DNA from: Pseudomonas phage PhiPA3
Length of the DNA stretch: 64,000 nucleotides
Direction: 5' to 3' (one strand)
Sequence record: HQ630627.1
Position 1 is the first letter of the stretch; each line of letters begins with the position of its first letter. The notes beneath the pieces are model-generated. The model was not told where the DNA came from. It saw only the letters and a program-made list of their open reading frames with translations, and made no database searches. Shown here in pieces: positions 81 through 57,598 of this stretch. The translations under genes and the position numbers were made by a program.

Positions 81-89
81 CTATATTAC
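81..89 (+). promoter_or_regulatory. promoter-like element, core CTATATTAC (class A: AT-rich upstream, ACgtctttgct downstream)
   Basis: one of 8 copies of a conserved 9-mer, located after a terminator and ~40 nt upstream of ATG 128. Confidence 0.5.
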
Positions 90-127
90 GTCTTTGCTGA
101 ACCAACACTCAATCATTAGGGGTAATC

Positions 128-916
128 ATGATCACGCTTAAAAAGTCGCTGACCCAGTGCACGCTGGATAGCTGGTATACCTTCATGGCTGAGAACAGCC
201 TGTCTCGTTTTGATTGTCTGATTGATATTGGCTATCTGGATGAACCACTGCGTAAGATTCTGGAGAAGCACCCGATGTACCGTGGGGATGGTACCATTCT
301 CCTGAACCTGTCTGTGAATGCCTGTAAGCACATTAACTACAGAGGCGATGCATTTACCGGTGAGATCGGTCTTCAGGGTCGTCCGACTTCCCTGTATATC
401 CCGTACCATGCGTTCGTTTCATTGCAGATTCCGCTGTCGGAAACGGCTACAGTAGAAGCCAGTTTCCCGATCTACGACCGACTGGTATTCGATGCTCAGA
501 ACCCCACCTTCGTACACCCGTACGCTGAAGCTGGGCAACAATCGCTCCTCACTATTGCTCCTGAAGCTGTAGTGAAGTGGATGCACAATGAAGGCCACAC
601 TGAGTGTAATGTCCACAACGTCGGTGAGTTCATTAAGTACGTATGGCCTAATGGTGTACCGATGGAAGTCCAAGAATATTTGGTCGAAGAAACCGCCAAT
701 ATGCTCCGCGACCATCAAATGGCTGTACTGCAAAAGCAGTCTGCACAAGCTCCGGTTCCTTCGAATGACGATCGTATCCCGTTTGAAGAAGCTGAAATCA
801 AACCCCTGCTGGAATTCCCTGATCTCTCGGCCAATAAAGTTGTTCTGCAACAGCCGGTGGCGTCGAAGTTCAAAGGCAAGCCAACCCTGACTCTGATTAA
901 AGGAGGTAAGAAGTGA
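128..916 (+). CDS. SspB-like ClpXP adaptor protein (substrate-binding domain, acidic linker, C-terminal ClpX-binding-like tail KPTLTLIKGGKK)
   Basis: 262-aa ORF. N-terminal ~110 aa match SspB hallmark motifs by eye (WYtFmaENsLsRFdcLIDI ; RGDGtIlLNlSvnAckhInY ; FtGeiGLqGRPtSLyIPyhAfvSLqI). The C-terminus resembles the SspB RPALRVVK tail. Confidence 0.55.
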   Translation: MITLKKSLTQCTLDSWYTFMAENSLSRFDCLIDIGYLDEPLRKILEKHPMYRGDGTILLNLSVNACKHINYRGDAFTGEIGLQGRPTSLYIPYHAFVSLQIPLSETATVEASFPIYDRLVFDAQNPTFVHPYAEAGQQSLLTIAPEAVVKWMHNEGHTECNVHNVGEFIKYVWPNGVPMEVQEYLVEETANMLRDHQMAVLQKQSAQAPVPSNDDRIPFEEAEIKPLLEFPDLSANKVVLQQPVASKFKGKPTLTLIKGGKK

Positions 917-1182
917 GTGCTTCTGTCGTTGTAGGTCTTCCGACTGTTCTGCTTAGTACCATTCTCACTGCTGGGGTACAAGGTCCTGCGGGTAATAGTC
1001 AACTGGCCCAGGACTTCGAGTCTAAGGAAGCTTGCTGGCAAGCAATAGGTGCAATTCAACAAGCAACAGGTACCAATGGCGTAAAAGTACACCAGATCGA
1101 ACAAGGTGTTGTCCTTGAATATAGTTTTGAGGGCAAGAACATCCGTCGTGAAATGGTTTGTGTTAGCAAGCACAAACAGTGA
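913..1182 (+). CDS. small protein with N-terminal hydrophobic segment (possible signal peptide)
   Basis: 89-aa ORF; start overlaps previous stop (GTGA context); followed by terminator. Confidence 0.55.
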   Translation: MSASVVVGLPTVLLSTILTAGVQGPAGNSQLAQDFESKEACWQAIGAIQQATGTNGVKVHQIEQGVVLEYSFEGKNIRREMVCVSKHKQ

Positions 1183-1186
1183 ATGA

Positions 1187-1212
1187 GGGGAGTCCTACGG
1201 GACTCCCTTTAT
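1187..1212 (+). terminator. rho-independent terminator (GGGAGUCC-UACG-GGACUCCC plus UUUAUAU)
   Basis: 8-bp stem directly after stop of 913..1182. Confidence 0.7.
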
Positions 1213-1240
1213 ATCCCCTTCTCTTTTAGAGGCTTTAACA

Positions 1241-1993
1241 ATGAACCGACACAATTCCGAGGAAGTTCGCCAACTGATCGCCGATACGGCTGTGCAACTG
1301 GATACGCTGATGGAGAGTAATCACCTCAATGGCATCCGTTTCACTTTCGTGGCACCCAGTGAGGAGACCTTCAACGAACTGTCCAAGATCATTCATGAAG
1401 TTGAAAACCTGGGTCACACCATGCGTGTGCTGCGTGGGTCTCTCCATGACTTCAAAGAAATCATGGACGCTCAAGACTTTATCGTCACCGCTGGTAACAG
1501 TTACGGACACATGACTGGTGGTCTGGATGGTGCTCTGGCTGATATCTATCCTGATCTGATCAAACGCGTTCCATCTACCATTGCTCTTAAGTGTCATGGC
1601 GAGCTCAATGTGGGTGATGGTGTACTGGTGCATCGACATATCCAAGAACCCATCTACGAGAAGATCGTGTACAAGGATCAATACCTGGTTTACGTGCCGA
1701 CCATGCGTACTCCACGTCGGTTGGCAAAAGGTAGTGATGTACCTTATCTGGCTACCCACAAGGCCCTGAGTCTGATTCGCCAAGGCCTGATCCAACATCC
1801 TACCTTCCGTAATGTGTTCATGACCCTCATGGGTACTGGCACTGGTAACATTCCCGTGAAGGTAGCAGTCGAGCAATTCCTGCTGGCTCTTCGGAAAGCT
1901 ACTCGGATTGTCAATGTTAAGAAGCTGTTCGATGATGGTAAAGACGTCGACCATGAACTGGTTAACATTTGGAAAAGGTATGGCAATGAGTAA
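1241..1993 (+). CDS. macro-domain (ADP-ribose binding/hydrolase-like) protein
   Basis: 250-aa ORF containing FIVTAGNSYGHMTGGLDGALA, which matches the macro-domain signature (vNAAN..L.GGGGVDGAIh) by eye. Confidence 0.75.
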   Translation: MNRHNSEEVRQLIADTAVQLDTLMESNHLNGIRFTFVAPSEETFNELSKIIHEVENLGHTMRVLRGSLHDFKEIMDAQDFIVTAGNSYGHMTGGLDGALADIYPDLIKRVPSTIALKCHGELNVGDGVLVHRHIQEPIYEKIVYKDQYLVYVPTMRTPRRLAKGSDVPYLATHKALSLIRQGLIQHPTFRNVFMTLMGTGTGNIPVKVAVEQFLLALRKATRIVNVKKLFDDGKDVDHELVNIWKRYGNE

Positions 1994-2381
1994 GGACAAC
2001 GTGGGGTTAACGGTCGCACAGCGCAAGATTTACTTGGATGCGCTGGATCCAGTTATTCAAAAGATCGCATATGTCATCGATAAGGATCACAAAGGTTACG
2101 AGCCTGAAGTGCAGGTGAACTTAGCTAATCGCAGCTATGACATTATCTGCACGGAGTTCATGAAGTTCAATATGCAGCGTCGAGATGACAGTCCGCAATG
2201 GCAGTCGTTCTTCGACCAGCTCAAAGTGCCTCGTGAACTTCCCCCACGTGAGTCTGAGCAAACTGAGTACGAATGGCTGTCGATGGCTGCCCGTTCTCAG
2301 AAAGCCAAAGAGATGCAAGCAGCAATGAAGTTAGACTCTGTTGACAGAGACTACGTCAATACTTGGACGGGAAAAGTATGA
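1980..2381 (+). CDS. hypothetical protein
   Basis: ORF in track 1908..2381; first ATG downstream of the upstream stop region is at 1980 (MAMSKDNV...), overlapping the macro gene stop. Confidence 0.55.
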   Translation: MAMSKDNVGLTVAQRKIYLDALDPVIQKIAYVIDKDHKGYEPEVQVNLANRSYDIICTEFMKFNMQRRDDSPQWQSFFDQLKVPRELPPRESEQTEYEWLSMAARSQKAKEMQAAMKLDSVDRDYVNTWTGKV

Positions 2382-2629
2382 GCGAAGAAGATTACGTCGC
2401 ATCTCAAATTCAACATGGTATTTGTCAGGAATTCCGTAAGGCTTACAAAGCAAAGATTGCTGTCTACAACTGCGAAGACATGCGAGTCAGCTTGGTCTAC
2501 GAAGATGGCCGTGTTGAACACTACCAACTCCAACACCCGACCGTCGTTTGCGATCCCGATGCTAGTCGTATCGTAGATGTCACCTACGACTTCTCCATGA
2601 TTGTCGGCAACAAACCAACTCTCCACTAA
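2378..2629 (+). CDS. hypothetical protein
   Basis: ORF 2363..2629; ATGA overlap start at 2378 (MSEEDYV...). Confidence 0.55.
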   Translation: MSEEDYVASQIQHGICQEFRKAYKAKIAVYNCEDMRVSLVYEDGRVEHYQLQHPTVVCDPDASRIVDVTYDFSMIVGNKPTLH

Positions 2630-2638
2630 GGAAATACA

Positions 2639-4069
2639 ATGCACGCTTATCTCCAGCTGTTGGAAGACATCAAGAAATACGGTGTCTTCAAAGGAGATCG
2701 AACCGGGACTGGTACTCAGTCCCTTTTCGGTCGTCAGTTCCGTTTTGATCTGAAAGACAACAACCTGCCGGTTGTGACCACCAAGTTCGTTCATACCCCG
2801 TCGGTTGAAGTCGAACACGTCTGGATGAAGAACGGTCTCACTAACCTGAAGTTCCTGCTCGATCACAACGTGCGGATCTGGAACGAATGGTGCAAGCCGG
2901 GTACTGAAGTGCGCGTACCGGTGGACGAAGGTGAGCTGGTTGATCTGGTTCAACGCAAGTTCAAGTACGTTGACTTCGAAATGCACCACAGCAATGAAAT
3001 CGAAGAAGACTACAAGTTCATCCTAGATGGTGCTCGTACCAACGGCGAGAAAGGTGCGGTACTGCTGATGAGTGGTAAAGCCTGGATGGATGTCGAGCGT
3101 TTCGGCCCAGGCCCCACTACTTACGACTTCTATGGTCATGCTCGTCGAGTCTGGCAAATCGTCTGCGGAGAAACTACTACCCTTAAAGTAGGGGAAGACG
3201 GCTTTGTTTACCGTCTCGTAGATGGTGATCTGGGTCCGGTGTATGGTAAGACCTGGCGTAATATCGAGGACACTCGGATCATCAAGAAGGCTGAACTCCA
3301 GAACTTCTTGGATCGTAAGTTCACATTCGTGGTGGATGTACCGGGTACATCTCTGGAAACCGATCGAGCTGTAGTTACCCGTAATATCGATCAACTGGCT
3401 GAACTGCTCCATGACCTGGAACACAATCCGGATTCGCGGCGTCTGATCATCTGTGCCTGGGACCCGGCTCTGGTTGATGAACAGGCATTGCCTCCGTGCC
3501 ACGCATTTATTCAGTTCTGGACTCGTAAGCTGGAACTGTCCGAACGTCTGAGTCTGTGGGTTTCCAATAATGCCAATGAATTCATCAAGCATCTGTTGGA
3601 TTATAAGGGGGATTGGCCGACTCAAAACGTTATTGACATCGTCAACACTGGCGAATACCAACAAGTCATTACTCAGGTAGCCGAAAGTGATTGGCTGAAG
3701 TTTGTAGAAGCATCGGGTATTGATCTGACTGGTATTCCTGAACGAGGCATTAGTTGCCAACTCTACCAGCGATCAGTTGACGCATTCCTTGGTTTGCCCT
3801 TTAACATCACCTTCTACTCGATCATGACTCATGCACTGGCCAACCAGTTCAACATGGTTGCAGAAGAGTTCATCTGGACTGGGGGTGATTGCCACATTTA
3901 TTCCAACCACCAAGAACAGACTGATCTACAACTGACTCGGAATACGTTCCCGACTCCGAAGATTCATTTCCGTGAGAAAGGTAAACCGTATCTGGAACTG
4001 GACGTAGGTGATTTCGTGATCGAAGGTTATGAGTATCACCCACACATTGCTGGCAAGGTAGCCGTCTAA
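2639..4069 (+). CDS. thyA: thymidylate synthase family (ThyA-like, dUMP-specific Asn retained) with three large insertions
   Basis: 476 aa. Contains ThyA motifs YLQLLEDI..G..KGDRTGTGTQSLFG.QFRFDL, VVTTKF, IWNEW, DLGPVYGKTWR, NPDSRRLIICAWDP, PPCHAFIQFW, SCQLYQRSVDAFLGLPFNI, WTGGDCHIYSNH. Inserts of ~110, ~30 and ~60 aa versus E. coli ThyA (264 aa). RBS aaggaaatacaATG. Confidence 0.85.
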   Translation: MHAYLQLLEDIKKYGVFKGDRTGTGTQSLFGRQFRFDLKDNNLPVVTTKFVHTPSVEVEHVWMKNGLTNLKFLLDHNVRIWNEWCKPGTEVRVPVDEGELVDLVQRKFKYVDFEMHHSNEIEEDYKFILDGARTNGEKGAVLLMSGKAWMDVERFGPGPTTYDFYGHARRVWQIVCGETTTLKVGEDGFVYRLVDGDLGPVYGKTWRNIEDTRIIKKAELQNFLDRKFTFVVDVPGTSLETDRAVVTRNIDQLAELLHDLEHNPDSRRLIICAWDPALVDEQALPPCHAFIQFWTRKLELSERLSLWVSNNANEFIKHLLDYKGDWPTQNVIDIVNTGEYQQVITQVAESDWLKFVEASGIDLTGIPERGISCQLYQRSVDAFLGLPFNITFYSIMTHALANQFNMVAEEFIWTGGDCHIYSNHQEQTDLQLTRNTFPTPKIHFREKGKPYLELDVGDFVIEGYEYHPHIAGKVAV

Positions 4070-4329
4070 TGGAAAAGACCACGTTATCGTTGGAAGAACG
4101 TTGTACCTATGGAGCTCGTCAATCGATCCGTAAGGAAAGTGAGGCATCCAATGGGTATTTTGTTTGCAACAGTTTCACAATCGGTAACGTGGCTTCTCTC
4201 AAGATCTGGCAGAAGCCCAATGTCACCGATGAAGAACTACACGTCAAGTTAGATCAGATGGGTTATCCGAAATATCTGGAAGACGTGGATCCTGTTGACC
4301 TTGTTAAACAAGAAGATACCAATGTATAA
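4069..4329 (+). CDS. hypothetical protein
   Basis: 86-aa ORF, ATG overlaps thyA stop (TAATGG). Confidence 0.55.
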   Translation: MEKTTLSLEERCTYGARQSIRKESEASNGYFVCNSFTIGNVASLKIWQKPNVTDEELHVKLDQMGYPKYLEDVDPVDLVKQEDTNV

Positions 4330-4549
4330 ACATGTAGTAGATGGAAATGAATTGAGCAGTGCAGCCATTGATGTATTCCGCAGACTGTTCAAGAAAGGTT
4401 CCCAAGATGATGGTGATCTACCGTCCAAGTCGGGGATGCTGGAACTGATCCGTTGTGGCTTCGCCATGAAGGATTACACTATGGAATTACCTAACCGGCT
4501 GACGGTGGTAGGTCAGGAAGCTGCTGAACGTTTCTTTGGAGTACGTTAA
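4322..4549 (+). CDS. hypothetical protein
   Basis: track ORF 4295..4549; ATG 4322 (MYKHVVDG) is the first start not deeply embedded in the upstream gene; the alternative start at 4295 is possible. Confidence 0.45.
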   Translation: MYKHVVDGNELSSAAIDVFRRLFKKGSQDDGDLPSKSGMLELIRCGFAMKDYTMELPNRLTVVGQEAAERFFGVR

Positions 4550-4854
4550 TGCTTGAACAATCCCAGAACTGCTTCAAAATCAACTACGCTGAAATCATCG
4601 GTAACGAAGGTAAAACCGACGGTAAGCCGCTTACTGCTTTCGGTGATGAAGCCGAAGTTCAACGTCGGCTGCAAGAGCTGGTTGACAAAGACATCCTGCG
4701 TTGTTCGATTCATTGGGGCGCGCATGACTACGCCACCTTCGATATCGATGTTCCGGGTACCGACCAGGTTCAAATCCTGAAGCCCGGTGACCGTGTGAAT
4801 TTCGTTGGTGATTCGTACGAAATCGTTATCGATCCATCTAACAAGGAAGAGTAA
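4549..4854 (+). CDS. hypothetical protein
   Basis: 101-aa ORF, TAATG overlap start. Confidence 0.6.
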   Translation: MLEQSQNCFKINYAEIIGNEGKTDGKPLTAFGDEAEVQRRLQELVDKDILRCSIHWGAHDYATFDIDVPGTDQVQILKPGDRVNFVGDSYEIVIDPSNKEE

Positions 4855-5540
4855 TGTCTACGACTAGACTGGAATACATCCTCGAAAAGATTGCCATCTC
4901 TGGTAATGGTGAACAATTCAAGCACAACTTCTGTACTTACCGAAATGGTCAAGTACTTGGGTTGGGTCGTCCTGGCGTCACCAGTCGGAAACTACGTGAT
5001 TGGTTGTTCACCCAGAATGCTCACCAGTTCCTGAGTGAAGAGGACATTAGTTATCTGATTCACTGCATGGACGCCTACAGCGCAACTGTGCATGATGACC
5101 TCAATGAGTTCCTTTGTGAGCTGGGTCTGTGGTCTCCGGGGAAAGAATCTCCTGTGGATTGTCTGGCTGCGTTCACCTACCGTCTGTTCCATGGAGACTT
5201 CGTTTCGTACGAGCGTTTCCAGCGTAACAGTCGTTTTGCTGAGGCAGCTTATGGCGCTGATATGGCTACTGAGGTATCTTACAGTAAGCCTATACCAGTA
5301 TTCACCAAGACACTGGAAGAGGCTGACCTCTGGTACGAATTTGGACAAGAGATCGCTCCGATCAATGAAGATGGTATTCGCCGTCTACCTGAGGACAAGA
5401 AGATTGTCCGGGACTGGTTGAACCAGCACAATCTCCCGTTGGTGTACACCTGCTTCGACTTCAGTCCGGAGCCTGTACCCGAGGTTGATGCATCCGATGG
5501 TGAAAAGGTTCAGGAACACAAGTGTGCCATCTGTCAATAA
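4854..5540 (+). CDS. hypothetical protein (C-terminal HKCAICQ)
   Basis: 228-aa ORF, TAATG overlap start. Confidence 0.65.
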   Translation: MSTTRLEYILEKIAISGNGEQFKHNFCTYRNGQVLGLGRPGVTSRKLRDWLFTQNAHQFLSEEDISYLIHCMDAYSATVHDDLNEFLCELGLWSPGKESPVDCLAAFTYRLFHGDFVSYERFQRNSRFAEAAYGADMATEVSYSKPIPVFTKTLEEADLWYEFGQEIAPINEDGIRRLPEDKKIVRDWLNQHNLPLVYTCFDFSPEPVPEVDASDGEKVQEHKCAICQ

Positions 5541-5650
5541 CTACTCAAGTAACGACATGAGGCTAAGGAGAACTCCATGGGTACTCTGAAGACGGACTAC
5601 ATACGCTGCCCCACTCCGCAAGGGGGTGGGGGCGAATGTGAGTCAATCAA

Positions 5651-5908
5651 ATGTCAAGCGACAAATCCAAAAAGCAGTATCGTCATCACCATGAGCAACG
5701 CCACGTTAAAGCACAGGTGGCTATCTGGCGGTTCTACAACCAACAGGCAGCCAGTCTCGACGACCGCCGGCTCGGTCGGATGCGTAAAGAACACGCATTA
5801 AACTGTGGTCGCTCTCACTGTATGCTCTGTGTGAATCCTCGTCGGACTTGGGGTCGTAAGACTCTGGCCGAAAAGGTAGCGGATATTCGCTTTAAGGAAC
5901 AACAATAA
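5651..5908 (+). CDS. small basic Cys/His-rich protein (possible Zn-binding nucleic-acid-binding protein)
   Basis: 85-aa ORF rich in K/R/H with CGRSHCMLC; ends right before terminator 5911-5937; weak RBS. Confidence 0.45.
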   Translation: MSSDKSKKQYRHHHEQRHVKAQVAIWRFYNQQAASLDDRRLGRMRKEHALNCGRSHCMLCVNPRRTWGRKTLAEKVADIRFKEQQ

Positions 5909-5910
5909 TA

Positions 5911-5937
5911 GAGGGGGCTTCGGCCCCTTCTTTTATT
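5911..5937 (+). terminator. rho-independent terminator (GGGGGC-UUCG-GCCCC plus UUCUUUUAUU)
   Basis: GC stem, UUCG loop, T-run. Confidence 0.7.
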
Positions 5938-5954
5938 CCCTCAAGGAAAATACA

Positions 5955-6263
5955 ATGCGGATAAATGATGACATGGGTTACGGGAATCTGATTGACTTCC
6001 CCGAAGAGAAATTCATGAAAGCGGGTGAGTTGGTGCTGATCCGCAAAAGAACTGCCTACGCAGGTGAAACCCCCATTGGGCTTTACCAAGTGGCGGAGGA
6101 TTGTTCTTTACCCAGACGCTACGAAGGGGAAGTCCGTGCAGACCTAGTATGGTCTGCCAAGGATAACGAGAACAGAATGCTGATCGAAGACGTTGAGAAC
6201 CTGGTTGAACAGGGTAAGCTCAAGCCAGTCGAACATACATCTATCTACTATCGGGACGAGTAA
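5955..6263 (+). CDS. hypothetical protein; ~100-aa domain paralogous to the C-terminal part of 6265..6975
   Basis: RBS caaggaaaatacaATG; shares KAGElVli..LYqVaEDC.lPrR..G.V and LVeQGKLKPvehTSiyY with the neighbouring gene. Confidence 0.7.
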   Translation: MRINDDMGYGNLIDFPEEKFMKAGELVLIRKRTAYAGETPIGLYQVAEDCSLPRRYEGEVRADLVWSAKDNENRMLIEDVENLVEQGKLKPVEHTSIYYRDE

Positions 6264-6264
6264 C

Positions 6265-6975
6265 ATGTCAATCACAATTATTGTTTTCTCTAAGGAAGAA
6301 CCGAGTGATTCCGACATCATGACGTATGTCGGTGCTATCCCTGGACTCAGTGGAGAAGATTTCCGTTACCGTCTGGCATGGAGACATCGCTGTAATAATG
6401 ACATTCACAGCACCTTGTTTCAGATTTACGATGACGAGCATCATTCCGATAACTGTCATCTGTTGTTCAGGAATGGCCTGGTTACTGTCACAACTATGAC
6501 CGAAATTGCAGAGTTCACTCAGAACCTGCAAGACGAAATTAACTTCTACAGTAGTAACTTTGAGGAAGGGGTTAAAGCCGAAGTTTACTCGATCAGCAAT
6601 GGCGATACCTTGTACATTTTCCCTGATCAGGCCCATCGTGTTCATCATCTTCTTAAAGAAGATCTGAAATTGGTCTCCGACGACGAGAAAGAAGTAGCCG
6701 AATATACGTTGCTGGATAAGGACTATGAACTCAAAGCTGGGGAAATTGTCCAGGTGTACACCCACGTTAAATATGAAGGTGTATACGGCCACGAGTTATA
6801 CGAGGTCATCGAGGACTGCGTTATTCCCAAACGTGCTAGCGGTAGCGTTCTGAATCGCTACTTTGAAAAGGATGGTCGTAGGCAGAGAAACTACGATGAC
6901 GTTCAGACCTTAGTGGACCAAGGCAAACTGAAACCTATTAAATGCACCAGTGTTATCTACAAGGCCGAAATATGA
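6265..6975 (+). CDS. hypothetical protein with C-terminal domain paralogous to 5955..6263
   Basis: track ORF 6193..6975; the ATG at 6265 (MSITIIVFSK) follows the stop of the upstream gene; C-terminus ...LVDQGKLKPIKCTSVIYKAEI. Confidence 0.65.
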   Translation: MSITIIVFSKEEPSDSDIMTYVGAIPGLSGEDFRYRLAWRHRCNNDIHSTLFQIYDDEHHSDNCHLLFRNGLVTVTTMTEIAEFTQNLQDEINFYSSNFEEGVKAEVYSISNGDTLYIFPDQAHRVHHLLKEDLKLVSDDEKEVAEYTLLDKDYELKAGEIVQVYTHVKYEGVYGHELYEVIEDCVIPKRASGSVLNRYFEKDGRRQRNYDDVQTLVDQGKLKPIKCTSVIYKAEI

Positions 6976-49838: not shown

Positions 49839-49884
49839 AGTTTTACTTACAATGACGCAATGGACCACAGTTCGTTATTCTGGC

Positions 49885-49925: not shown

Positions 49926-49944
49926 CTGCTGGTATCTGACCACA

Positions 49945-51804
49945 TTAACTAGGGTTATACACGTACAGTGTTTTCTGTATAACGTTCCCAGGCTGTACGC
50001 CACCCGACACATATATCATGCCATTGACAGATGCACACGAAATGTCGTTACCAATTACAGGTAGATCAGGTAGTTGTTTCCATGTATTAGCAACCACATC
50101 ATATTCCCAGAAATCACTGAACGTTTGTGAAGCTGAAGCACCACCGACAATGTAAACCTTATTGCCAACTGACGCCATACCAAACGAAACTCTTGCCTGT
50201 ATAGCGGTGGGGACATTGGCTAGCTTTGTCCATACACGGGTATTCAAATCCAGTACATGGACATCCCTCGACATGGTAGTTCCATTCAACCAACCAAATG
50301 CCAAGACTAGTTTACCCGCAGCAATAGCCATCCGACCATTCTTGCGTGGTGGGGGTGTGGAACCAGAAACCGATGGTTTAGTCCATTTATTTCCAGTACC
50401 GTCCAGATTGTACTGATAAAGGGCATTGTCAGTTGGACCACTATCACCGAACATATAAAGACTTCGTCCATAAGAAGCCATGCAGTGACCCATTCTCCAA
50501 CTGGGCATTGCGCCATCAGTAATTGAACTCCAGGTATTTACACTGGGGTCGTATGCAAACATATCCGGTGAAGAATTAGATCCACTGAAAATATAAGTCT
50601 TCCCATCTATTGTTGCACCAGCGGTTTCATGCCTTCCTGGTCCTTGGACAGCATCTTCGCTCCATGTGTTCGTATATGGATCGTAACTGTAATTGGTATT
50701 TGTTACCACCGCGCCAGTAGATCCGTAAAGAACCCTGTATTTACCAGCACTCTCAACCCCAACAGCACTCCGGCGACCCGCAGGCATATCGGCTAGCTGT
50801 GTCCATTGGTTCTTCTCAATTGATGGGGCTAATCGAATGCGATAGACATCTTCTAAGAGGTTTGCTTTCAAGAAATATCCTTGGCTGGACATTGGAACCT
50901 TGGTACCACCACTGACAATCATATCCCCATTACCCATCGGTGCAACGGAAACGATGTTTCTATAAGGGATATTCAACTTCAGTGGTTCAGCAAATCGCTT
51001 AGTTTTAATGTGGAATCGTTGTGCATACATTTCACCATTAACGACGTTAATATAGTTGTAGTAATCGCCAGTAACGTATCCGTTACCCTGCCACACCACT
51101 CCTTTATCTTCCGGTAACGTCATCCATGGCGTTTGTTCCCAGGTACCTGCTGCATTATTGTATCTATAAACGTCGAGATACAATCCACCCTTGTCATTAT
51201 TCCAACCACCAAAATGGTAGAAGTAACCATCGTAGTAAAAAAGCTGCTGCCCTGAGCGTGTATCACCGGCGTAGTTTTGACCAGCTTTCCAATCATTAGT
51301 AGCCGGACGGAGTCTAATAGAGTTATTGGAAGTACCGTTCGCTATCATTACGTCGGTACCACCGTCAGAAGCTGCCGCTGTACCATAGAACGAAAATGGC
51401 CCAGGTACAGTGCTCACTCTGGCGCCAGTTGCCTTAGTAAAGCGCTGCATTCTATTGGTCAGACCAGTACCGCCCATACCCGCAGAGTCATATCCGGTGA
51501 TACCACCGAATGTAAAGAACTCTCCGTTATGCATTACATGGTAGCCGATAGAAAAACCAGGGGAGAACGTTCCAGCTGTGGTTGATCCAATATACGAGAA
51601 AGGTTCCAACGTATACTGCCTGAATACGGTCCCTGCTACTGAACCTTCAGTATGGTGACCAGAACCAACAAACAGTGTGTTACCATCCACGTAAGAAGAT
51701 GAACCTCCTAACGCTACTCCTAAATCACCTAGTTTATCTATCCTCCCAAAACCGGTTAAAGGTAGCTGCTCGCCTTTTCCTGACGAAAGTAATATTTCAA
51801 ACAT
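49945..51804 (-). CDS. Kelch-repeat beta-propeller protein (galactose-oxidase-like fold; candidate tail fibre / host-recognition or carbohydrate-binding protein)
   Basis: 619 aa with repeated Kelch-type units (e.g. VYIVGGASASQTFSDFWEYDVVANTWKQLPDLP, IYVSGG...LYVYNP, FYHFGGWNNDKGGLYLDVYRYNNAAGTWEQ). Confidence 0.7.
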   Translation of the reverse strand: MFEILLSSGKGEQLPLTGFGRIDKLGDLGVALGGSSSYVDGNTLFVGSGHHTEGSVAGTVFRQYTLEPFSYIGSTTAGTFSPGFSIGYHVMHNGEFFTFGGITGYDSAGMGGTGLTNRMQRFTKATGARVSTVPGPFSFYGTAAASDGGTDVMIANGTSNNSIRLRPATNDWKAGQNYAGDTRSGQQLFYYDGYFYHFGGWNNDKGGLYLDVYRYNNAAGTWEQTPWMTLPEDKGVVWQGNGYVTGDYYNYINVVNGEMYAQRFHIKTKRFAEPLKLNIPYRNIVSVAPMGNGDMIVSGGTKVPMSSQGYFLKANLLEDVYRIRLAPSIEKNQWTQLADMPAGRRSAVGVESAGKYRVLYGSTGAVVTNTNYSYDPYTNTWSEDAVQGPGRHETAGATIDGKTYIFSGSNSSPDMFAYDPSVNTWSSITDGAMPSWRMGHCMASYGRSLYMFGDSGPTDNALYQYNLDGTGNKWTKPSVSGSTPPPRKNGRMAIAAGKLVLAFGWLNGTTMSRDVHVLDLNTRVWTKLANVPTAIQARVSFGMASVGNKVYIVGGASASQTFSDFWEYDVVANTWKQLPDLPVIGNDISCASVNGMIYVSGGVQPGNVIQKTLYVYNPS

Positions 51805-51867
51805 GAGTATGATCTCAAGTAATCCATCGTTGCATAGGATTAACCTTTATTATAATTGGGTAGACGA

Positions 51868-51898
51868 TATAAACCCACCCGCAATGGGTGGGTTTATG
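51868..51898. terminator. bidirectional-looking terminator (AAACCCACCC-GCAAU-GGGUGGGUUUAUGCC)
   Basis: 7-bp GC stem flanked by A-run and T-run; downstream of minus gene 51902..52783. Confidence 0.6.
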
Positions 51899-51901
51899 CC
51901 A

Positions 51902-52783
51902 TCAGACTAAAATAACCCTAGCTACCGGATGGAATCTTCCACCAAATTCTGGCTCTACTTCACGGGTTTCCCCTACCAGATTTATTTGGACAAAGTATCC
52001 AGGTCTAGTTGGACTTTCAGTGGAGGTTATATACCAAGCATCAGGAGGATCTTGTATATAGCCATAATCGGTCCTGTACGGTACTTTATCTCCACGCATC
52101 ATGATAGCTGGACCTACGTACTTAATGAACTCATCCACCGTAGGACACCAACAGAACATTCTTACGCCAGCAATACCGTTATAACTGCGCGATTGAATAA
52201 CACTACCACCAAATGCGCTGATAGCTTCGGGACTAAATACCGTGGACATGTCTTTCTGGTCACCGGTTCTATCGCCCAACCAACTCCAGTTATACAAAGC
52301 TGTTACGGACCAACCGTCGGCAGCCGGGTAAATACTGGTGCAGATGTATTCATCGTCGTAGGTATAGATTCTTAACCGAGTGCGAAAAAGATCATCATCC
52401 ATGCCATGACCCCTGTCACCGGTTATATCAGTAAAATCAATCCATCTTGGCGGTCTAATACCAGCCCAAGACACAGCGACCAAAGAATTATGCTCGGACG
52501 TTTCTCTAAAACCATAAGGCGCCAATACTCCAAGTCTTGGATCATTATGCCTGAATGTTTTAACATCCGAATAATAGCTTCCCCAATCCATTACATATTC
52601 AAGTAAGTACCAATACTGGAAACCCAGTAAGGTATTGTACTCGATGATACCTATCGTACCTGGATAACTTACCCAATCAGTCGGTAATGTATCTTTTGTA
52701 AATGGCTCGTTAGCCACGTACAGTCGATATTCCTTAGGCAAGTTTAGAGAAATGGTTGGATCTAAATAAAGATGGATGCGCAT
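51902..52783 (-). CDS. hypothetical protein (Trp/Tyr/Gly-rich; likely structural or carbohydrate-binding, operon with the Kelch gene)
   Basis: 293-aa ORF. Confidence 0.65.
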   Translation of the reverse strand: MRIHLYLDPTISLNLPKEYRLYVANEPFTKDTLPTDWVSYPGTIGIIEYNTLLGFQYWYLLEYVMDWGSYYSDVKTFRHNDPRLGVLAPYGFRETSEHNSLVAVSWAGIRPPRWIDFTDITGDRGHGMDDDLFRTRLRIYTYDDEYICTSIYPAADGWSVTALYNWSWLGDRTGDQKDMSTVFSPEAISAFGGSVIQSRSYNGIAGVRMFCWCPTVDEFIKYVGPAIMMRGDKVPYRTDYGYIQDPPDAWYITSTESPTRPGYFVQINLVGETREVEPEFGGRFHPVARVILV

Positions 52784-52784
52784 G

Positions 52785-53642
52785 TTATCCTCCGTTACCG
52801 ATCAAGCGCAGCGCCACTTTCCAATAAATTTTATACAAACTGGTATTCACATCCGGTGCAGTGATAAAATTGTCAGGATAAAATTTAGTCAGTCCAGCGC
52901 GGGAGTATAGCTTCTGTGTCACGTAGGAGGAAATCCTGTTTGCAACTACGATCGTATCTTCAGCTACATTAAGGAAACCAGCAGCGGCTTCAACGATACT
53001 CTTACCCCGTACTTCATGCTCTATATTCTCCAAGTACTCGGCATCGCTGTCGCAATAACTGTTCATGATGTATTCAGCCGTATTGGACATATCGAAAGCA
53101 TAGGTGAAATCGTTGATGGTGATTAACTTACCACTAGACAGCTCGGTGAGCACGTCATATAAATTCTCTGGCAGTATCTGTAAGTAACCCCCCAATGCAG
53201 TGTAGTAGTAATCACCGTTAAGATCATTGAGCTTAGTCCACTTATTGGTCCAGTTACCAATCACCAGTCCAGGTATATTCAATGCAGTGATCAATTCATC
53301 AGCCGTAGGCAATTGAGGGTCTTGTGTTACCCCAATAACCTTACCGAAGACATGTTGGCTCATTGACGAGCGCAGTTCACTACCAGGACCGTATAGACCA
53401 CTTGCCTTCATGGTAAACTGAGGACTAATGGCCTTGGTATTATTGAACACTGTCTGAATACGGTAGTTATACGTCGACCCACCAACTGCGGTAACGTCCC
53501 TGAAAGAGTTAGCAAATCCATCCAATACTGCAATGGGTGAATCTGTCGGGTCTTCTGGGATTGGGGTATCCACTGGAGTACGGAAAATGTTTATAACTGT
53601 ACGATCGGGTGGATTGGGGTTCTTAAATTCAAACTGAATCAT
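52785..53642 (-). CDS. hypothetical protein
   Basis: 285-aa ORF; start overlaps the upstream stop (ATGA). Confidence 0.65.
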   Translation of the reverse strand: MIQFEFKNPNPPDRTVINIFRTPVDTPIPEDPTDSPIAVLDGFANSFRDVTAVGGSTYNYRIQTVFNNTKAISPQFTMKASGLYGPGSELRSSMSQHVFGKVIGVTQDPQLPTADELITALNIPGLVIGNWTNKWTKLNDLNGDYYYTALGGYLQILPENLYDVLTELSSGKLITINDFTYAFDMSNTAEYIMNSYCDSDAEYLENIEHEVRGKSIVEAAAGFLNVAEDTIVVANRISSYVTQKLYSRAGLTKFYPDNFITAPDVNTSLYKIYWKVALRLIGNGG

Positions 53643-53977
53643 TAATACACCTCAAACGTCGGCATGTACGGAGTAGCGAACTCTACTTTAAGATCAGTTA
53701 CGGGTTCAGCATGGGCGTCCATTGGGTCTTCTAATCTAACCTTAATAAGACGTGCAGGCAAGCTGCCTCCGAGGTAATTAATAACGACGTAAATGATGTT
53801 GTCTTTACCCGCACAGATGGTATCTTGGCCGGACTGGTGAGGGTGGTCTATATTGCGAAGAACGGCACTCCAACGTCTGTTCAACGGCATCCATTGATAT
53901 ACTGGGAATCTAGGATTACTCGATATCGGGAATAAAGTCGACGGAACATAGAACAGTGTATCACGCCAGATATGCAT
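53642..53977 (-). CDS. hypothetical protein
   Basis: 111-aa ORF. Confidence 0.55.
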   Translation of the reverse strand: MHIWRDTLFYVPSTLFPISSNPRFPVYQWMPLNRRWSAVLRNIDHPHQSGQDTICAGKDNIIYVVINYLGGSLPARLIKVRLEDPMDAHAEPVTDLKVEFATPYMPTFEVY

Positions 53978-53984
53978 TCAACCT

Positions 53985-54015
53985 TTTGACGGAATAAAAG
54001 AGTAGCCGAAGCTAC
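53985..54015 (-). terminator. terminator after the tRNA-Asn/Tyr unit (minus strand reads GAGAGUAGC-UUCG-GCUACUCUUUUAUU)
   Basis: 8-bp stem, UUCG loop on the minus strand, T-run. Confidence 0.6.
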
Positions 54016-54026
54016 TCTCGTTATAT

Positions 54027-54112
54027 GGTGGTTGAAGGAAGGAATTGAACCTCTAGCCTAGGCGGGGGTGTTACAGACCCCTGACAGTAGCCATCTGTCT
54101 ATACATCAACCG
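54027..54112 (-). tRNA. tRNA-Tyr-like (anticodon GUA), type II length (86 nt), non-canonical D-arm
   Basis: minus strand: acceptor GGUUGAU/UUCAACC-A-CCA, anticodon arm GGGGU-CUGUAAC-ACCCC, T-arm AGAGG-UUCAAUU-CCUUC closely resembling E. coli tRNA-Tyr; the D-arm region (GACAG...CUGUC) does not fit standard spacing. Confidence 0.5.
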
Positions 54113-54267
54113 AAGGTGTGGAGACTCCATTTGACCGCTCTGGAACCTCTCCGAATTTGGGCGGCATTTTTATTATACTGAGCTCCCCGCAGTCTCTCAG
54201 TCCCAGGCGGCCAGCTTTGGGCTGCTGACCTTACGCTCGGTGTGACTGTTGTTAACAGTCAGTGTTT

Positions 54268-54343
54268 GGCTCCGGAAACATGATTCGAACATGTGACCCA
54301 CAAGTTAACAGCTTGTTGCTCTACCAGCTGAGCTATTCCGGAA
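54268..54343 (-). tRNA. tRNA-Asn (anticodon GUU), CCA encoded
   Basis: minus strand: UCCGGAA-UA-GCUCAGCUGGUAGAGCA-ACAAG-CUGUUAA-CUUGU-GGGUC-ACAUG-UUCGAAU-CAUGU-UUCCGGA-G-CCA. Confidence 0.85.
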
Positions 54344-54475
54344 GGAAATTTGACGGTTTGCTTTTTCAGAGTGGGGGAACACCGACAACCCTCTCACCAA
54401 TGCAAGCGTTTGCTCACCTGGCTTTGCGAGGACAGAATCGTTAGCCCAGTGGGCGATTGCATTTCCTCGTATACT

Positions 54476-54492
54476 ATTACATACTGAGTAAG
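54476..54492 (-). promoter_or_regulatory. minus-strand motif TTACTCAG-TATGTAAT immediately after the stop of 54493..54732 (~133 nt upstream of tRNA-Asn)
   Basis: short-spacer member of the WTACTCA/TATGTRR family. Confidence 0.45.
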
Positions 54493-54732
54493 TTATTTAT
54501 TTTCATCGCAACGCCAACCGTACACTGTGTAGTTCCCATTATCAGAAACTTTCATGGCGGTAGCTGTGCGTTGAATCTCTACGTTCGGTAGATTCTTGAA
54601 CTTACTGTATTGTATTTCTAGGTGGTTGAGGCATTGGGGCATGGAGTCAAACTGAATGTAGGACTTCTCTACATTAGTAATACCAAACAACCCTACCTTA
54701 GCAACCAGTGCTAACATGGCTACCTTGACCAT
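54493..54732 (-). CDS. hypothetical small protein
   Basis: 79-aa ORF. Confidence 0.5.
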   Translation of the reverse strand: MVKVAMLALVAKVGLFGITNVEKSYIQFDSMPQCLNHLEIQYSKFKNLPNVEIQRTATAMKVSDNGNYTVYGWRCDENK

Positions 54733-54739
54733 TGCTATC

Positions 54740-55033
54740 TTATTCCGTGTGCTTCAGATATTTCTCCAAAGCTTCGTGGGCTCGGTTGAAATACACCAGC
54801 GGAACGAACGAAACATTGGTGACTCGATGTTCGTCATGCAGTTCCCACTTGATAGCCTTTACTTGGCCATTGGGGAGAATGATATCAAGACCATTAGGGA
54901 ACAATACAATCCCTTCGTCAATCCTGATATGCTCGGGAGCAGCAGCTCCACCACGAAAAGCCGGGTTGAAAGTCAGGTTGTATAGTTTTTGAATAAGCGG
55001 CGTAATAATCGCCTGTTGCATTTGACTTTCCAT
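54740..55033 (-). CDS. hypothetical protein
   Basis: 97-aa ORF. Confidence 0.5.
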   Translation of the reverse strand: MESQMQQAIITPLIQKLYNLTFNPAFRGGAAAPEHIRIDEGIVLFPNGLDIILPNGQVKAIKWELHDEHRVTNVSFVPLVYFNRAHEALEKYLKHTE

Positions 55034-55380
55034 TATCTTCCCCTATTGTTGTTGTATGGGGTAACGGTTGCAACTATCGACATGCCCTTAAAGAAAGGAT
55101 GATAATCAAACGCAAGAATACCGGTTTCCTGTACCAGCCAGAAGGTAAGCCTGAGTGTATCTCCATTGTCCCCACGAATGGATATCTTACCTTCTGTACG
55201 GCTACGCTTGTCTACGTAACCGACTTGCACTTTGGCAGCGGGATAGATTTGACCGCGACTGTTCATCAACCGAACGTTAGAAATCCCAAACGAGTCGGTG
55301 ATCTCCGGCTGAACATTCAAGTCCTTGTAAATCGGATAATGGTTTTGTGCAATCGGAATCGTTACGTCTTGGTCAATCAT
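55033..55380 (-). CDS. hypothetical protein
   Basis: 115-aa ORF, ATGA overlap with the downstream gene. Confidence 0.55.
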   Translation of the reverse strand: MIDQDVTIPIAQNHYPIYKDLNVQPEITDSFGISNVRLMNSRGQIYPAAKVQVGYVDKRSRTEGKISIRGDNGDTLRLTFWLVQETGILAFDYHPFFKGMSIVATVTPYNNNRGR

Positions 55381-55502
55381 GCCATGCTTCCTTTAATAAT
55401 GGCTACGGTACCGGACCGAAACCGGTGACTGCTCGCAGTACCCCGCAGCGGATACCCAGTGTTGAATCCAAGGAGTATGCAGAGACTGTCGAGATCTCCA
55501 CA

Positions 55503-55528
55503 TACCAATTCCCTTTGAGTAACTTTTA
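55503..55528 (-). promoter_or_regulatory. minus-strand bipartite motif TTACTCA-N11-TATGTGGAG directly after the stop of 55526..56032
   Basis: long-spacer family member, ~120 nt upstream of ATG 55380. Confidence 0.4.
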
Positions 55529-56032
55529 GCTAAAGCGGATTACGAGGATGTCATTTCCAAAGGTGTCTGCTACCCATTGGTTGAATTCCTTATCAGTAAT
55601 CCCTCGAAGATTTAAATTGTAGGAAGCATTGTCTACAAGTAGATACTTTAGCCGTTTGGAGATATCTGAATTGAAGTCTTTTTGGATCGAGTATTGCTCG
55701 GGGTGACGAATGTACTTACGTAGCCTTTCAGTGATTAGATACGGTAATGTCAAGCCTGGACTCTTAGACTGAATACCCCGTTGAATTTTATCGTCCGTGA
55801 ATACAGCCAGGCATTCCCCTTGATGTCGAGTAGCGAATTCAACGAGTGCACTACTGCTACCACATTGACGACCTACAAAGAACCCTACGGTACGACATTC
55901 GCGAATCAACACGTGTGACGAGATATTACCTCGATGGTATTCCCAACCTTCATTGGTTTTTTGGATCAATGCATCCAGGATGTCCTGGTAATTTACAATA
56001 GTTCTTACGAACCGATTATAGCCATTGGCCAT
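55526..56032 (-). CDS. hypothetical protein
   Basis: 168-aa ORF. Confidence 0.6.
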   Translation of the reverse strand: MANGYNRFVRTIVNYQDILDALIQKTNEGWEYHRGNISSHVLIRECRTVGFFVGRQCGSSSALVEFATRHQGECLAVFTDDKIQRGIQSKSPGLTLPYLITERLRKYIRHPEQYSIQKDFNSDISKRLKYLLVDNASYNLNLRGITDKEFNQWVADTFGNDILVIRFS

Positions 56033-56304
56033 GATTATCTCCGGTATTACAATGCAACATAAAGTCCCGCCCTAGGGCAGGACCTGATGCCGACTTTGGA
56101 AAGGTCTCGTCGTCCCTTCCTCATCTACATGCGAACTTTGTTAGTGGATACAAATAACGAGATTCGCGCGTCTTTAGTCGCCCCAACGACTTCCCACAGT
56201 ACCATTAACTTTCCACTAATCGTCTCTGGTTTTCCGGGTGCTATAAGCATATCAAGTCAATGCAGTCTGCGGGGCTCGGGTGAGAGTGGCACCGCCTCGA
56301 TATG

Positions 56305-56347
56305 GTAGCAATTAGCTACATATCATCGCAACGCCAGTATATTTTCA
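56305..56347 (-). promoter_or_regulatory. degenerate minus-strand motif AATATACTGGC-N10-TATGTAGC after the stop of 56348..56704
   Basis: shares the AATATACTGGC 11-mer with the copy at 57545-57575. Confidence 0.3.
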
Positions 56348-56704
56348 CTACCAGCGACTGGCACTGAATGGACGAGGATATTCAAGGCCAGCAATATCTT
56401 TACCGTTAACCACGACTACCCATTGATTCATGGTGGCGGTCTCACGGTAAACGATTGTTGGTTTAATCTCTTCACGAGTATACGTGGTTGCATACCATTC
56501 ACGCCAAACATCAATCAGACGGGCTTCCATGATTTCACGTAGTTGAGCCATGTTCCAGGTGCTATTTCCCGCTAGATCAGCCACTACCTCGCGAAGTCCA
56601 TCTAGGTATTTCTCATTTACATGGGGTTCGCCCCGGTTAGCCAATAGCTTCTCGTTGTTTGCATCCCGATCTGCTTGACTTATGAATATACGATTCGTAG
56701 TCAT
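56348..56704 (-). CDS. hypothetical protein
   Basis: 118-aa ORF; ATGA overlap with the upstream gene. Confidence 0.55.
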   Translation of the reverse strand: MTTNRIFISQADRDANNEKLLANRGEPHVNEKYLDGLREVVADLAGNSTWNMAQLREIMEARLIDVWREWYATTYTREEIKPTIVYRETATMNQWVVVVNGKDIAGLEYPRPFSASRW

Positions 56705-57171
56705 TTTCTCAGTCCCTCAATCTCAGCACGTAAAAATGAACTAATCATACCTGCTGCTTTTCGAGTGGGCGAATCAAACATTTTGTCATTCCCGGCTACT
56801 GAGTCAGTAACTTTCTGAGCTAGTATCAGTCCAGGGATATAAGCACGATTACCATGAGTTGCGATGCGTGGTTGATCACGATAATACTCAACGTGATGAT
56901 AGCCACTAGGATGCACTACGATAACTTTGATGCTATCTCGTTCCCTAGTAATTTCGATCTTGAAATCGGACAATCCATCTTCAATCAAAGCAATCGTCAG
57001 CTTGCATTCCAGGACCTGGAAGAGTAGCTTGTCTGTGAGATGCGGTTGATTCTGAATCGTAATGGGCGCATTGAAATACAGCAAATCCCTGATACGGGCA
57101 CCGAATACTTTCTGTTCAGTGGTATCCAGATCTCTTTGCAGTTGTTCTTCGTTGTTTTGGCTCATTACCAT
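56701..57171 (-). CDS. hypothetical protein
   Basis: 156-aa ORF. Confidence 0.6.
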   Translation of the reverse strand: MVMSQNNEEQLQRDLDTTEQKVFGARIRDLLYFNAPITIQNQPHLTDKLLFQVLECKLTIALIEDGLSDFKIEITRERDSIKVIVVHPSGYHHVEYYRDQPRIATHGNRAYIPGLILAQKVTDSVAGNDKMFDSPTRKAAGMISSFLRAEIEGLRK

Positions 57172-57300
57172 TGTCCTTTGTCTCTATGAATTTTGTCGTA
57201 TTTGATATAATAGTCTCTACCGCAGTGGGCACACCACTTGTAAAGACGGCCGCCTTGACATTGATTTCCAACTAGCTTGTGGCCCAATAGCCAGCACAGT

Positions 57301-57528
57301 TTACACCGTATTGAGTAGAGCTTCGACACGTTGCGTCCCCTGGCAAACCAGAACTGGTACTTCGATACCTTTCTCCTCGCAGTATTTTACGAGATCTTCA
57401 TGTGCCTTTCGCCACTGCTCCAGCAGCTGCCGATTCCGAATGCGATTAGCTTCCTTTTCTTCGGGAGTCAGTTCTGTTATATTACGAACACTGAGCTTGG
57501 GGATGGGATGGTATTCAGCAGATTTCAT
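57301..57528 (-). CDS. hypothetical small protein
   Basis: 75-aa ORF with RBS ggagatccaatATG on the minus strand. Confidence 0.55.
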   Translation of the reverse strand: MKSAEYHPIPKLSVRNITELTPEEKEANRIRNRQLLEQWRKAHEDLVKYCEEKGIEVPVLVCQGTQRVEALLNTV

Positions 57529-57544
57529 ATTGGATCTCCGTTTT

Positions 57545-57575
57545 CTCTATAATGGAAAGGAAGCCAGTATATTCT
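57545..57575 (-). promoter_or_regulatory. minus-strand motif AATATACTGGC-N11-TATAGAG ~20 nt upstream of ATG 57528
   Basis: family member positioned like a promoter for 57301..57528; divergent from + promoter element 57590-57598. Confidence 0.4.
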
Positions 57576-57589
57576 AAATATCTAGAGGC

Positions 57590-57598
57590 CTATATTAC
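57590..57598 (+). promoter_or_regulatory. promoter-like element, core CTATATTAC (class B: tctagaggcCTATATTACaattgTGAT)
   Basis: 52 nt upstream of ATG 57650. Confidence 0.5.

Follow-up and report, generated by a model that had tools for sequence, protein, structure and literature searches.

A counterpart of the phiKZ gp235 to gp306 region with a repeated intergenic element

The DNA studied here, a window of 64,000 nucleotides (nt) from Pseudomonas phage PhiPA3 (sequence record HQ630627.1), carries eight exact copies of a short element, CTAYATTAC, between its genes. By local tblastn, 49 of the 125 proteins predicted in the window match the gp235 to gp306 region of phage phiKZ and regions of phage PA1C, in collinear order. 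The matches include thymidylate synthase (gp235), gp246, gp248, gp258, gp268, gp272, gp282, gp285, gp286 and gp287, and collinearity continues into a minus-strand block of transfer RNA (tRNA) and structural genes (gp297 to gp304), followed by NrdB and NrdA (gp305 and gp306). The window thus corresponds to the phiKZ gp235 to gp306 region in a related phage. Megablast against 50,697 phage records returned no near-identical match; exact-protein look-ups for the AAA+ protein and NrdA came back empty, and an exact 40-mer had no match in viral and metagenome contig collections. Among more distant sequences, its NrdA shares 74% identity with that of BRkr, PS119XW and PA1C, Pseudomonas phages of ∼300 kb, and 71% with that of phiKZ-group phages; its AAA+ protein shares 55% identity with phiKZ gp286. 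A protein of 315 amino acids has matches in Pseudomonas jumbo phages only, and the gp287 orthologue is likewise restricted to such phages, namely the phiKZ and PA1C groups, Phabio, 201phi2-1, Psa21, D6, RVTF4 and Viktualia. The genes downstream of the element are small hypothetical genes and genes of nucleotide metabolism, which belong to the part resembling the early region gp235 to gp291 of phiKZ.

The conserved sequence is longer than the nine-nucleotide word

All eight exact matches to CTAYATTAC in the window are on the plus strand, starting at positions 81, 14326, 17109, 17963, 24132, 28559, 41742 and 57590. These are the copies that a first-pass annotation of the sequence had listed, and every one of them was recovered. 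In dinucleotide-preserving shuffles of the window, whose G+C content is 45 to 50% in 4-kb segments, the same word occurred 0.62 times on average and at most 4 times, with eight or more copies in 0 of 100 shuffles.

Conservation extends to either side of this word. Downstream, a G lies 7 nt 3′ of the final C of the motif in 8/8 copies (p ∼1e-5), immediately preceded by a T in seven of them. The core TAYATTAC is present at all eight sites, two of which (28559 and 41742) use the TACATTAC variant. Numbering the conserved G as +1, we found additional elements around −23 (TTTAAA) and −33 (ATTYAAA), clear in the sites of flank class B described below; these conserved upstream elements lie 4 and 13 bp from TATATT. 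The nine-nucleotide element proposed in the first-pass annotation thus stands as the core, but falls short of the full extent of about 37 bp, from −36 to +1.

The same element precedes genes of phiKZ and PA1C

For comparison we used two stretches of the phiKZ genome (1 to 50 kb and 230 to 280 kb) and 100 kb of PA1C. In phiKZ, TATATTAC-N6-G is found just 5′ of gp005, gp006, gp010.1, gp031, gp036, gp041.3, gp054 (the nuclear shell protein), gp241, gp242, gp246.1, gp260 and gp293.2. PA1C has eight such sites in its 100 kb, all on the plus strand, and those checked against the annotation adjoin the 5′ side of annotated genes. The search in related phages that had been proposed from the window alone recovered the same element in both genomes. 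No copies of the motif were found in the syntenic 12.6-kb stretches of 201phi2-1 and Phabio, nor in a distant relative from IMG/VR, to which part of the AAA+ protein is 52% identical.

Alignment of 24 sites on the conserved G (8 from the window, 12 from phiKZ and 4 from PA1C) revealed one common architecture, tATTyAAA-N5-TTTaAAa-N2-(c/g)-TATATTAC-aaat-N-T-G(+1)-a-t, as illustrated by the rows for window site 24132 (ATATTTAAAGCATTTAAAACCCTATATTACAAATGTGAT) and phiKZ gp260 (GTATTTAAAGCATTTTAAACAGTATATTACAAATGTGAT). We then built a position weight matrix (PWM) spanning −36 to +4 from the 16 phiKZ and PA1C sites only, and scored both strands of the window with it (∼128,000 positions); PA1C sites at 204 to 254 kb were examined apart from this matrix and form no part of it. 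Ranks 1 to 8 were taken by the eight window sites, with scores of 13.1 to 45.6, compared to 9.7 for the next position and a window mean of −44.

Four of the window sites occupy positions orthologous to those of sites in phiKZ or PA1C. Site 17109 lies directly 3′ of the gp246 orthologue (16410 to 17042), just as the phiKZ promoter at 240358 follows gp246. Site 17963 corresponds to PA1C 254200, with near-identical upstream sequence (TACTAAAATTTTTTTCAGATCTATATTAC), site 24132 to the tandem PA1C sites 261193 and 261243, and site 28559 to PA1C 265962. In addition, site 57590, in front of a lone plus-strand gene, resembles phiKZ site 266882, which is located 5′ of the lone plus-strand gene gp293.2.

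Two flank classes

The sites fall into two classes according to their flanks. Class A, with a T/A-rich upstream sequence ending in RAT-N, comprises window sites 81, 17963 and 28559, and elsewhere the sites of phiKZ gp031, gp036, gp054 and gp242 and PA1C 243920, 254200 and 278203. Class B, comprising window sites 14326, 17109, 24132, 41742 and 57590, has ATTYAAA-N5-TTTAAA upstream and an initial transcript beginning with GA(A/T). Across the window, phiKZ and PA1C, the base at +2 is other than A in 9/10 class A versus 1/16 class B sites (Fisher p = 3e-5). Both classes had been noticed in the first-pass annotation and are real, although the downstream signature given there for class B, ACAAnnnTGAT, holds for only three of the five sites, the common form being ACAA-N3-YGA(A/T).

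It is conceivable, albeit rather unlikely in our estimation, that the two classes represent functionally distinct subclasses of early promoter across several genera of the Chimalliviridae. If so, one class might be stronger than the other or act at another time, for example with one being transcribed immediately in the injection vesicle and the other slightly later, and they could also need different co-injected specificity factors. No description of such a subdivision was found in the literature examined, and nothing else about the finding is even mildly novel.

A sharply defined element without the hallmarks of a sigma70 promoter

Tolerating one mismatch in CTAYATTAC-N6-G raised the number of matches in the window to 12, compared to the 5.26 matches that this relaxed pattern as a whole yields on average in shuffles. 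The four non-exact variants, at 26799 and 39604 on the minus strand and at 45264 and 49050 on the plus strand, are within chance in number, and none is among the top eight PWM scores; when set against the gene model, 39604 and 49050, the latter at the 3′ edge of a minus-strand open reading frame (ORF), are not promoter-like. We consider the element sharply defined because the one-mismatch search adds only these four matches, none of them beyond chance. Another candidate, which would have been a ninth site, lies on the plus strand at 14946 to 14960, where TACATTAT-N6-G occurs 3′ of a terminator and 35 nt 5′ of an ATG at 14981. We did not count it because it is missing from the top 16 PWM scores; its core, which resembles those of phages EL and OBP in ending with ATTAT, may mark a decayed or weak promoter.

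This near-absence of tolerance for a single mismatch bears on whether the sites might be read by the host RNA polymerase (RNAP) with sigma70, in which case TATATT would serve as the −10 hexamer, transcription would start near the conserved G, and early expression would depend on the host, as it does in T4 or T5. TATATT does match TATAAT at 5/6 positions, and the AT-rich sequence upstream could act as an UP-like element. Sigma70 promoters, however, are not so intolerant of mismatches, and neither the invariant A-C after TATATT nor the G fixed 8 nt past the hexamer is a sigma70 feature. A −35 hexamer at 16 to 18 bp is absent, which the first-pass annotation had correctly pointed out, as is a TGn extended −10, and a sigma70 consensus scan of positions 1 to 20000 picked up none of the four sites located there. 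Given that the phiKZ counterpart of the element moreover belongs to a rifampicin-insensitive programme, we regard host sigma70 promoters as an extremely improbable explanation.

All copies lie between genes, 26 to 51 nt from start codons

Under a simple codon-usage gene model, which leaves 10.1% of the window non-coding, 8/8 exact copies lie within that non-coding fraction (p ∼1e-8); for this result, a weak call of a 36-codon ORF that overlaps the predicted +1 at 14341 was discounted. From the end of the motif to the first plus-strand ATG there are, in site order, 38, 44, 35, 26, 43, 32, 27 and 51 nt, resulting in predicted 5′ untranslated regions (UTRs) of 20 to 45 nt, next to the 31 to 40 nt that are typical of phiKZ. 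A perfect GC-rich hairpin is found 23 to 42 nt upstream at six of the sites and 224 nt upstream at 24132. As described in phiKZ, terminators in the window consist of a GC hairpin followed by TTAT.

Individually, the sites are numbered here as predicted early promoters 1 to 8, all on the plus strand. Promoter 1 (class A; 60 to 96; PWM score 25.2) has its core, CTATATTAC, at 81 to 89, the predicted start at G 96 and an ATG at 128; the terminator hairpin 42 nt upstream (21 to 38, plus strand) closes the preceding plus-strand unit. In promoter 2 (class B; 14305 to 14341; score 26.5), the core occupies 14326 to 14334, with the predicted start at G 14341 and an ATG at 14379, and a terminator hairpin at 14275 to 14290 (plus strand), followed by TTTAT, lies 35 nt upstream. 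Promoter 3 (class B; 17088 to 17124; score 36.8), with its core at 17109 to 17117, a predicted start at G 17124 and an ATG at 17153, likewise follows a plus-strand terminator hairpin and TTTAT (17050 to 17067), here at a distance of 41 nt. For promoter 4 (class A; 17942 to 17978; score 13.1), the core at 17963 to 17971 precedes a predicted start at G 17978 and an ATG at 17998, and there is a GC-rich hairpin 26 nt upstream (17917 to 17936, plus strand).

Promoter 5 (class B; 24111 to 24147) has the top score, 45.6; its core lies at 24132 to 24140, its predicted start at G 24147 and its ATG at 24184, and the terminator hairpin upstream is at 23886 to 23907 (plus strand), 224 nt away. The 224 nt between this terminator and promoter 5 (23908 to 24131) contain a modelled minus-strand ORF of 56 codons (23917 to 24087), which is the sole minus-strand call inside the long plus-strand early block and is tentative. 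Promoter 6 (class A with the TACATTAC variant; 28538 to 28574; score 15.8) has its core at 28559 to 28567 and a predicted start at G 28574, and a terminator hairpin followed by TTAT (28513 to 28530, plus strand) lies 28 nt upstream of the promoter. The gene downstream of it, at 28704 to 29006, is the orthologue of phiKZ gp268. Promoter 7 (class B, again with the TACATTAC variant; 41721 to 41757; score 43.1) lies 3′ of the orthologue of phiKZ gp286, the AAA+ protein, and 23 nt from a terminator hairpin followed by TTAT (41697 to 41718, plus strand), with its core at 41742 to 41750, a predicted start at G 41757 and an ATG at 41778. Finally, promoter 8 (class B; 57569 to 57605; score 31.4), with its core at 57590 to 57598, a predicted start at G 57605 and an ATG at 57650, precedes a lone plus-strand gene of 64 codons within the minus-strand block of tRNA and structural genes. 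No terminator hairpin was found upstream of this last site, which is located in a divergent region 3′ of a minus-strand gene.

These placements largely bear out what the first-pass annotation had described. It had put the copies between genes, and all eight are indeed outside modelled genes, with none in coding sequence; its 26 to 55 nt to the start codon agree with the 26 to 51 nt measured here; and the coupled upstream ORF it had reported at 28559 is a 35-codon ORF from the ATG at 28600 that overlaps the gene at 28704 by ATGA. Its statement that each copy comes after a terminator is right for seven of the eight sites and fails for 57590.

An element that is sharply defined, repeated and intergenic might also be an operator for a DNA-binding regulator of the phage, or a repeat used in recombination or packaging. 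Against this, all copies are co-oriented with the genes downstream, and they keep a fixed spacing to a conserved purine and a distance of 26 to 51 nt to a start codon; seven of the eight follow terminators. Dyad symmetry is absent, and related phages have mapped early promoters with the identical motif. We therefore give next to no credence to an operator or repeat.

The elements match early promoters attributed to a virion RNA polymerase

Early promoters carrying motifs of this kind have been described repeatedly for jumbo phages. The predicted early promoter of phiKZ is TATATTAC, and predictions of ...TTTRARR_BTATATTACDWHDGTG for 201phi2-1 and WTTTYAAACCTACATTATY for EL have been tabulated in the paper on phage N1M2 (PMC7058600). 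AR9 has the early consensus AAATATATATTAT-(6N)-G+1, its early transcription is resistant to chloramphenicol, and for phiKZ and phiR1-37 the conserved start lies 6 nt 3′ of their respective consensus (PMC5312081). According to a review, all jumbo phages that encode an RNAP have an AT-rich motif of ∼10 nt near −10, 5′ of their early operons; such early promoters are confirmed by transcript mapping, and the virion RNAP "must" recognise them (PMC7598289). The early promoters of phiKZ and 201phi2-1 are conserved at −10, −20 and −30 (PMC11512511). Two of the phiKZ genes in our comparison, gp054 (early motif and primary start site) and gp260 (primary start site), are named in this context (PMC8244752); the tie of TATATTAC to mapped phiKZ start sites is taken from text statements in these papers.

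In this family, early transcription is resistant to rifampicin, independent of new protein synthesis, and attributed to an injected multisubunit virion RNAP. Resistance of the immediate transcripts to both rifampicin and chloramphenicol has been shown for phiKZ and AR9, and sigma homologues are absent from these phages. Judging from the sequence and these precedents, it is highly probable that the eight elements act as early promoters for an injected multisubunit virion RNAP, as opposed to sigma70 promoters or sites for a modified host enzyme. The promoter type as such has already been described, and the window adds a further phage carrying a known element.

As proposed, each promoter would comprise about 37 bp, with ATTYAAA around −33, TTTAAA around −23 (or the T/A-rich RAT-N form), TAYATTAC from −14 to −7 and, after five variable bases, T at −1 and G at +1. 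On the strength of homology to phiKZ, 201phi2-1 and AR9, we expect it to be recognised by the phage's own multisubunit RNAP, which would be packaged in the virion and injected together with the DNA. Transcription would then start at the G right after injection, in the absence of host RNAP, sigma70 or new protein synthesis. Each promoter would open a plus-strand unit of small early genes, extending up to 14 to 16 kb before the next motif, with GC-hairpin-plus-TTAT terminators between and within the units.

A related possibility is that the sites serve the non-virion RNAP of the phage as middle or late promoters, or that they need an early phage activator or a sigma-like factor. The T-1/G+1 pair does recall the start motif TATG of phiKZ late promoters, which are read by the non-virion RNAP and use the G as start. 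Those promoters, however, have no extended upstream consensus, whereas the window sites share one of 30 bp. Of the phiKZ late TATG, the window sites have T-1/G+1 alone in common, and the positions equivalent to T-3 and A-2 vary. In addition, early transcripts that are independent of protein synthesis have been mapped to the TATATTAC class, the genes downstream lie in the gp235 to gp291-like early region, and a separate motif, GTTACTC...TATAC/TATG, would serve tRNA and non-coding RNA genes in the window. Promoters of the non-virion RNAP, or activator-dependent sites, are thus very unlikely.

The first-pass annotation had suggested a phage-specific promoter other than a sigma70 promoter, with a start site shortly downstream. 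This suggestion is well matched by the sequence, since the motif equals the published phiKZ core and the G 7 nt downstream of it fits the mapped starts of phiKZ and AR9. The mechanisms it had named, with the host RNAP in modified form, a sigma factor or activator of the phage, or a site for a regulator, are probably wrong, as early transcription in the family is assigned to the virion RNAP.

Several points nevertheless weigh against assigning the eight elements to a virion RNAP. The class A sites 17963 and 28559 reach PWM scores of only 13 to 16, which the best matches in some shuffled windows also attain (maximum 19.2), and the phages share only part of their promoter positions. Our direct observations concern the motif and its frequency relative to chance, its placement and strand, the fact that phiKZ and PA1C carry the identical element, and the orthologous location of several sites; that transcription in this phage starts at the G, takes place early and is carried out by a virion RNAP is deduced by analogy. 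No RNAP subunit gene was found within the 64-kb window, so that we infer the presence of a virion RNAP from family membership. The assignment in the literature itself is based on timing and on resistance to rifampicin and chloramphenicol, and to our knowledge in vitro recognition of the motif by a virion RNAP has been shown for no phage.

Relation to known promoter systems

The closest known counterparts are the phiKZ early promoters, 28 to 32 sites attributed to the virion RNAP, which share with the window the core TATATTAC, the N5-T-G(+1) spacing, TTTAAA at −23 and ATTYAAA at −33. Both flank subclasses, hairpin-plus-TTAT terminators upstream, small plus-strand early genes and several orthologous positions are common to the two phages as well. 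They differ in the base before the core, a C at 8/8 window sites yet mostly G, A or C in phiKZ, in the use of TACATTAC at two window sites, and in many promoter positions that are not shared, with protein identity being ∼30 to 75%. The 201phi2-1 (Serwervirus) consensus TTTRARR_BTATATTACDWHDGTG agrees with the class B sites at almost every base, and in the PA1C group, window site 24132 has a near-identical counterpart at 261243 and site 17963 one at 254200. EL and OBP differ from the window in that their cores end in ATTAT rather than ATTAC.

Further afield, promoters of the AR9/PBS1 type (AAATATATATTAT-(6N)-G+1) resemble the window sites in having a ∼10-nt AT-rich core near −10, six bases and then G+1, and in their intolerance of single mismatches. 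AR9 promoters are read by an injected multisubunit virion RNAP, which is what we propose for the window; unlike in the window, the last core base is T (C in the window), the upstream region is another one, the DNA contains uracil and the host is Bacillus. Promoters of the N4 virion RNAP and of the T7 type are comparable in being specific for a phage polymerase, independent of the host and conserved over a long sequence, and the N4 polymerase is injected, too. N4 promoters are DNA hairpins for a single-subunit enzyme, and T7-type promoters are duplex sites of 23 bp; neither shares sequence with the window sites or uses a multisubunit enzyme of the beta/beta′ type.

Non-coding RNA candidates and a second promoter-like motif

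Apart from the early element, the window contains several non-coding features. ARAGORN predicts five minus-strand tRNAs within 49453 to 58025 (Ser-TGA, Thr-TGT, Tyr-GTA, Asn-GTT and Leu-TAA), which alternate with homologues of structural genes, an arrangement also seen in phiKZ and PA1C. Four of the five are supported by Rfam; tRNA-Tyr at 54030 to 54109 was not confirmed. Beyond these four tRNAs, Rfam scans at the gathering threshold and at E<=0.1 returned a single sub-threshold match, antisense to a tRNA. Among the structural homologues, the minus-strand ORF at 49945 to 51804 encodes a Kelch-repeat beta-propeller (Pfam E = 2e-60), and ∼293 residues of the ORF product share 51 to 53% identity with gp298, a structural protein of the phiKZ virion, and with the PA1C equivalent.

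A candidate structured RNA was found on the plus strand at 45915 to 46000, within the gap 45891 to 46123, where a sequence of ∼80 nt could form a long bulged hairpin. Six Pseudomonas Chimalliviridae of several genera carry it between genes, 3′ of their gp287/gp288 orthologues; the counterparts are PA1C 283810 to 283891 and phiKZ 263181 to 263262, both in syntenic position, and loci L010 8312 to 8395, L009 8806 to 8900 and L008 7195 to 7291. Beyond PA1C and phiKZ, a covariance model recovers it in Psa21 (E = 3.6e-9), Phabio (6e-4) and 201phi2-1 (8e-3). In the alignment of the six sequences, 98% of cells pair and 16/20 pairs show compensatory changes, as compared to 33 to 48% paired in controls in which the pairing partner was slid by 1 to 3 columns, with the caveat that these figures favour structure because the alignment was fitted to the model. 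The motifs YATCTCYC, CCCGTC, GGTGCC and CRCCTAT are conserved and unpaired, and in the window and PA1C, more conserved sequence and a terminator follow 3′ of the candidate. We found no Rfam match for it and no mention of it in the phiKZ and 201phi2-1 transcriptome papers examined.

A second motif, consisting of an A-rich stretch followed by GTTACTC-N4-5-GTAAT-N2-3-TAT(A/G), lies 5′ of regions encoding non-coding RNA and tRNAs: at 45877 (plus strand) for the structured RNA candidate, at 54490 (minus strand) for the tRNA-Asn region, and at 59143 (minus strand) for the gap 58913 to 59145. A looser variant occurs around 58189 (minus strand), 5′ of tRNA-Leu, and AAATTACT is present 5′ of nrdB and nrdA, at 61499 to 61506 and 63908 to 63915 (both minus strand). 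Taken alone, AAATTACT is not significant as a middle-promoter word (4 occurrences versus 1.95 expected), and GTTACTC...GTAAT...TATAC/TATG is the more specific pattern. In phiKZ, middle promoters have a TACT motif ∼22 nt 5′ of the start site, AAAATTACC, and PHIKZ305 and PHIKZ306 are among the genes with the middle motif; in 201phi2-1, tRNA-Leu is driven by a middle promoter. The second motif and the AAATTACT sites are therefore probably middle-type promoters, fitting these descriptions of phiKZ.

A further non-coding gap, at 44746 to 44987 (plus strand) after the gp287.1 orthologue, is conserved in the corresponding location of PA1C (282552 to 282781) and phiKZ (262641 to 262781). The core common to the three phages reads TATG..TTCCTTTACGAT.GCTCTTT, and the gap ends in a terminator made of a hairpin plus TTTAT. 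The window and PA1C versions contain a hairpin resembling a tRNA T-arm (GGGTTCGAGTCCC), and neither ARAGORN nor Rfam made a call here. Its sequence makes this region a candidate for a small RNA that would be transcribed from a TATG-type start.

Significance for host-independent transcription in the family

For the annotation of this phage, which has no close sequenced relative in the collections searched, the motif is of value in that it marks the predicted starts of eight early transcription units, and it assigns the phage to the group whose transcription does not depend on the host. The finding opens no new question. It shows that the specificity attributed to the virion RNAP has been kept almost base for base despite a protein identity of 30 to 75%. 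Conservation of this degree can be used to predict early genes in metagenomic Chimalliviridae and to design expression cassettes that work independently of the host.

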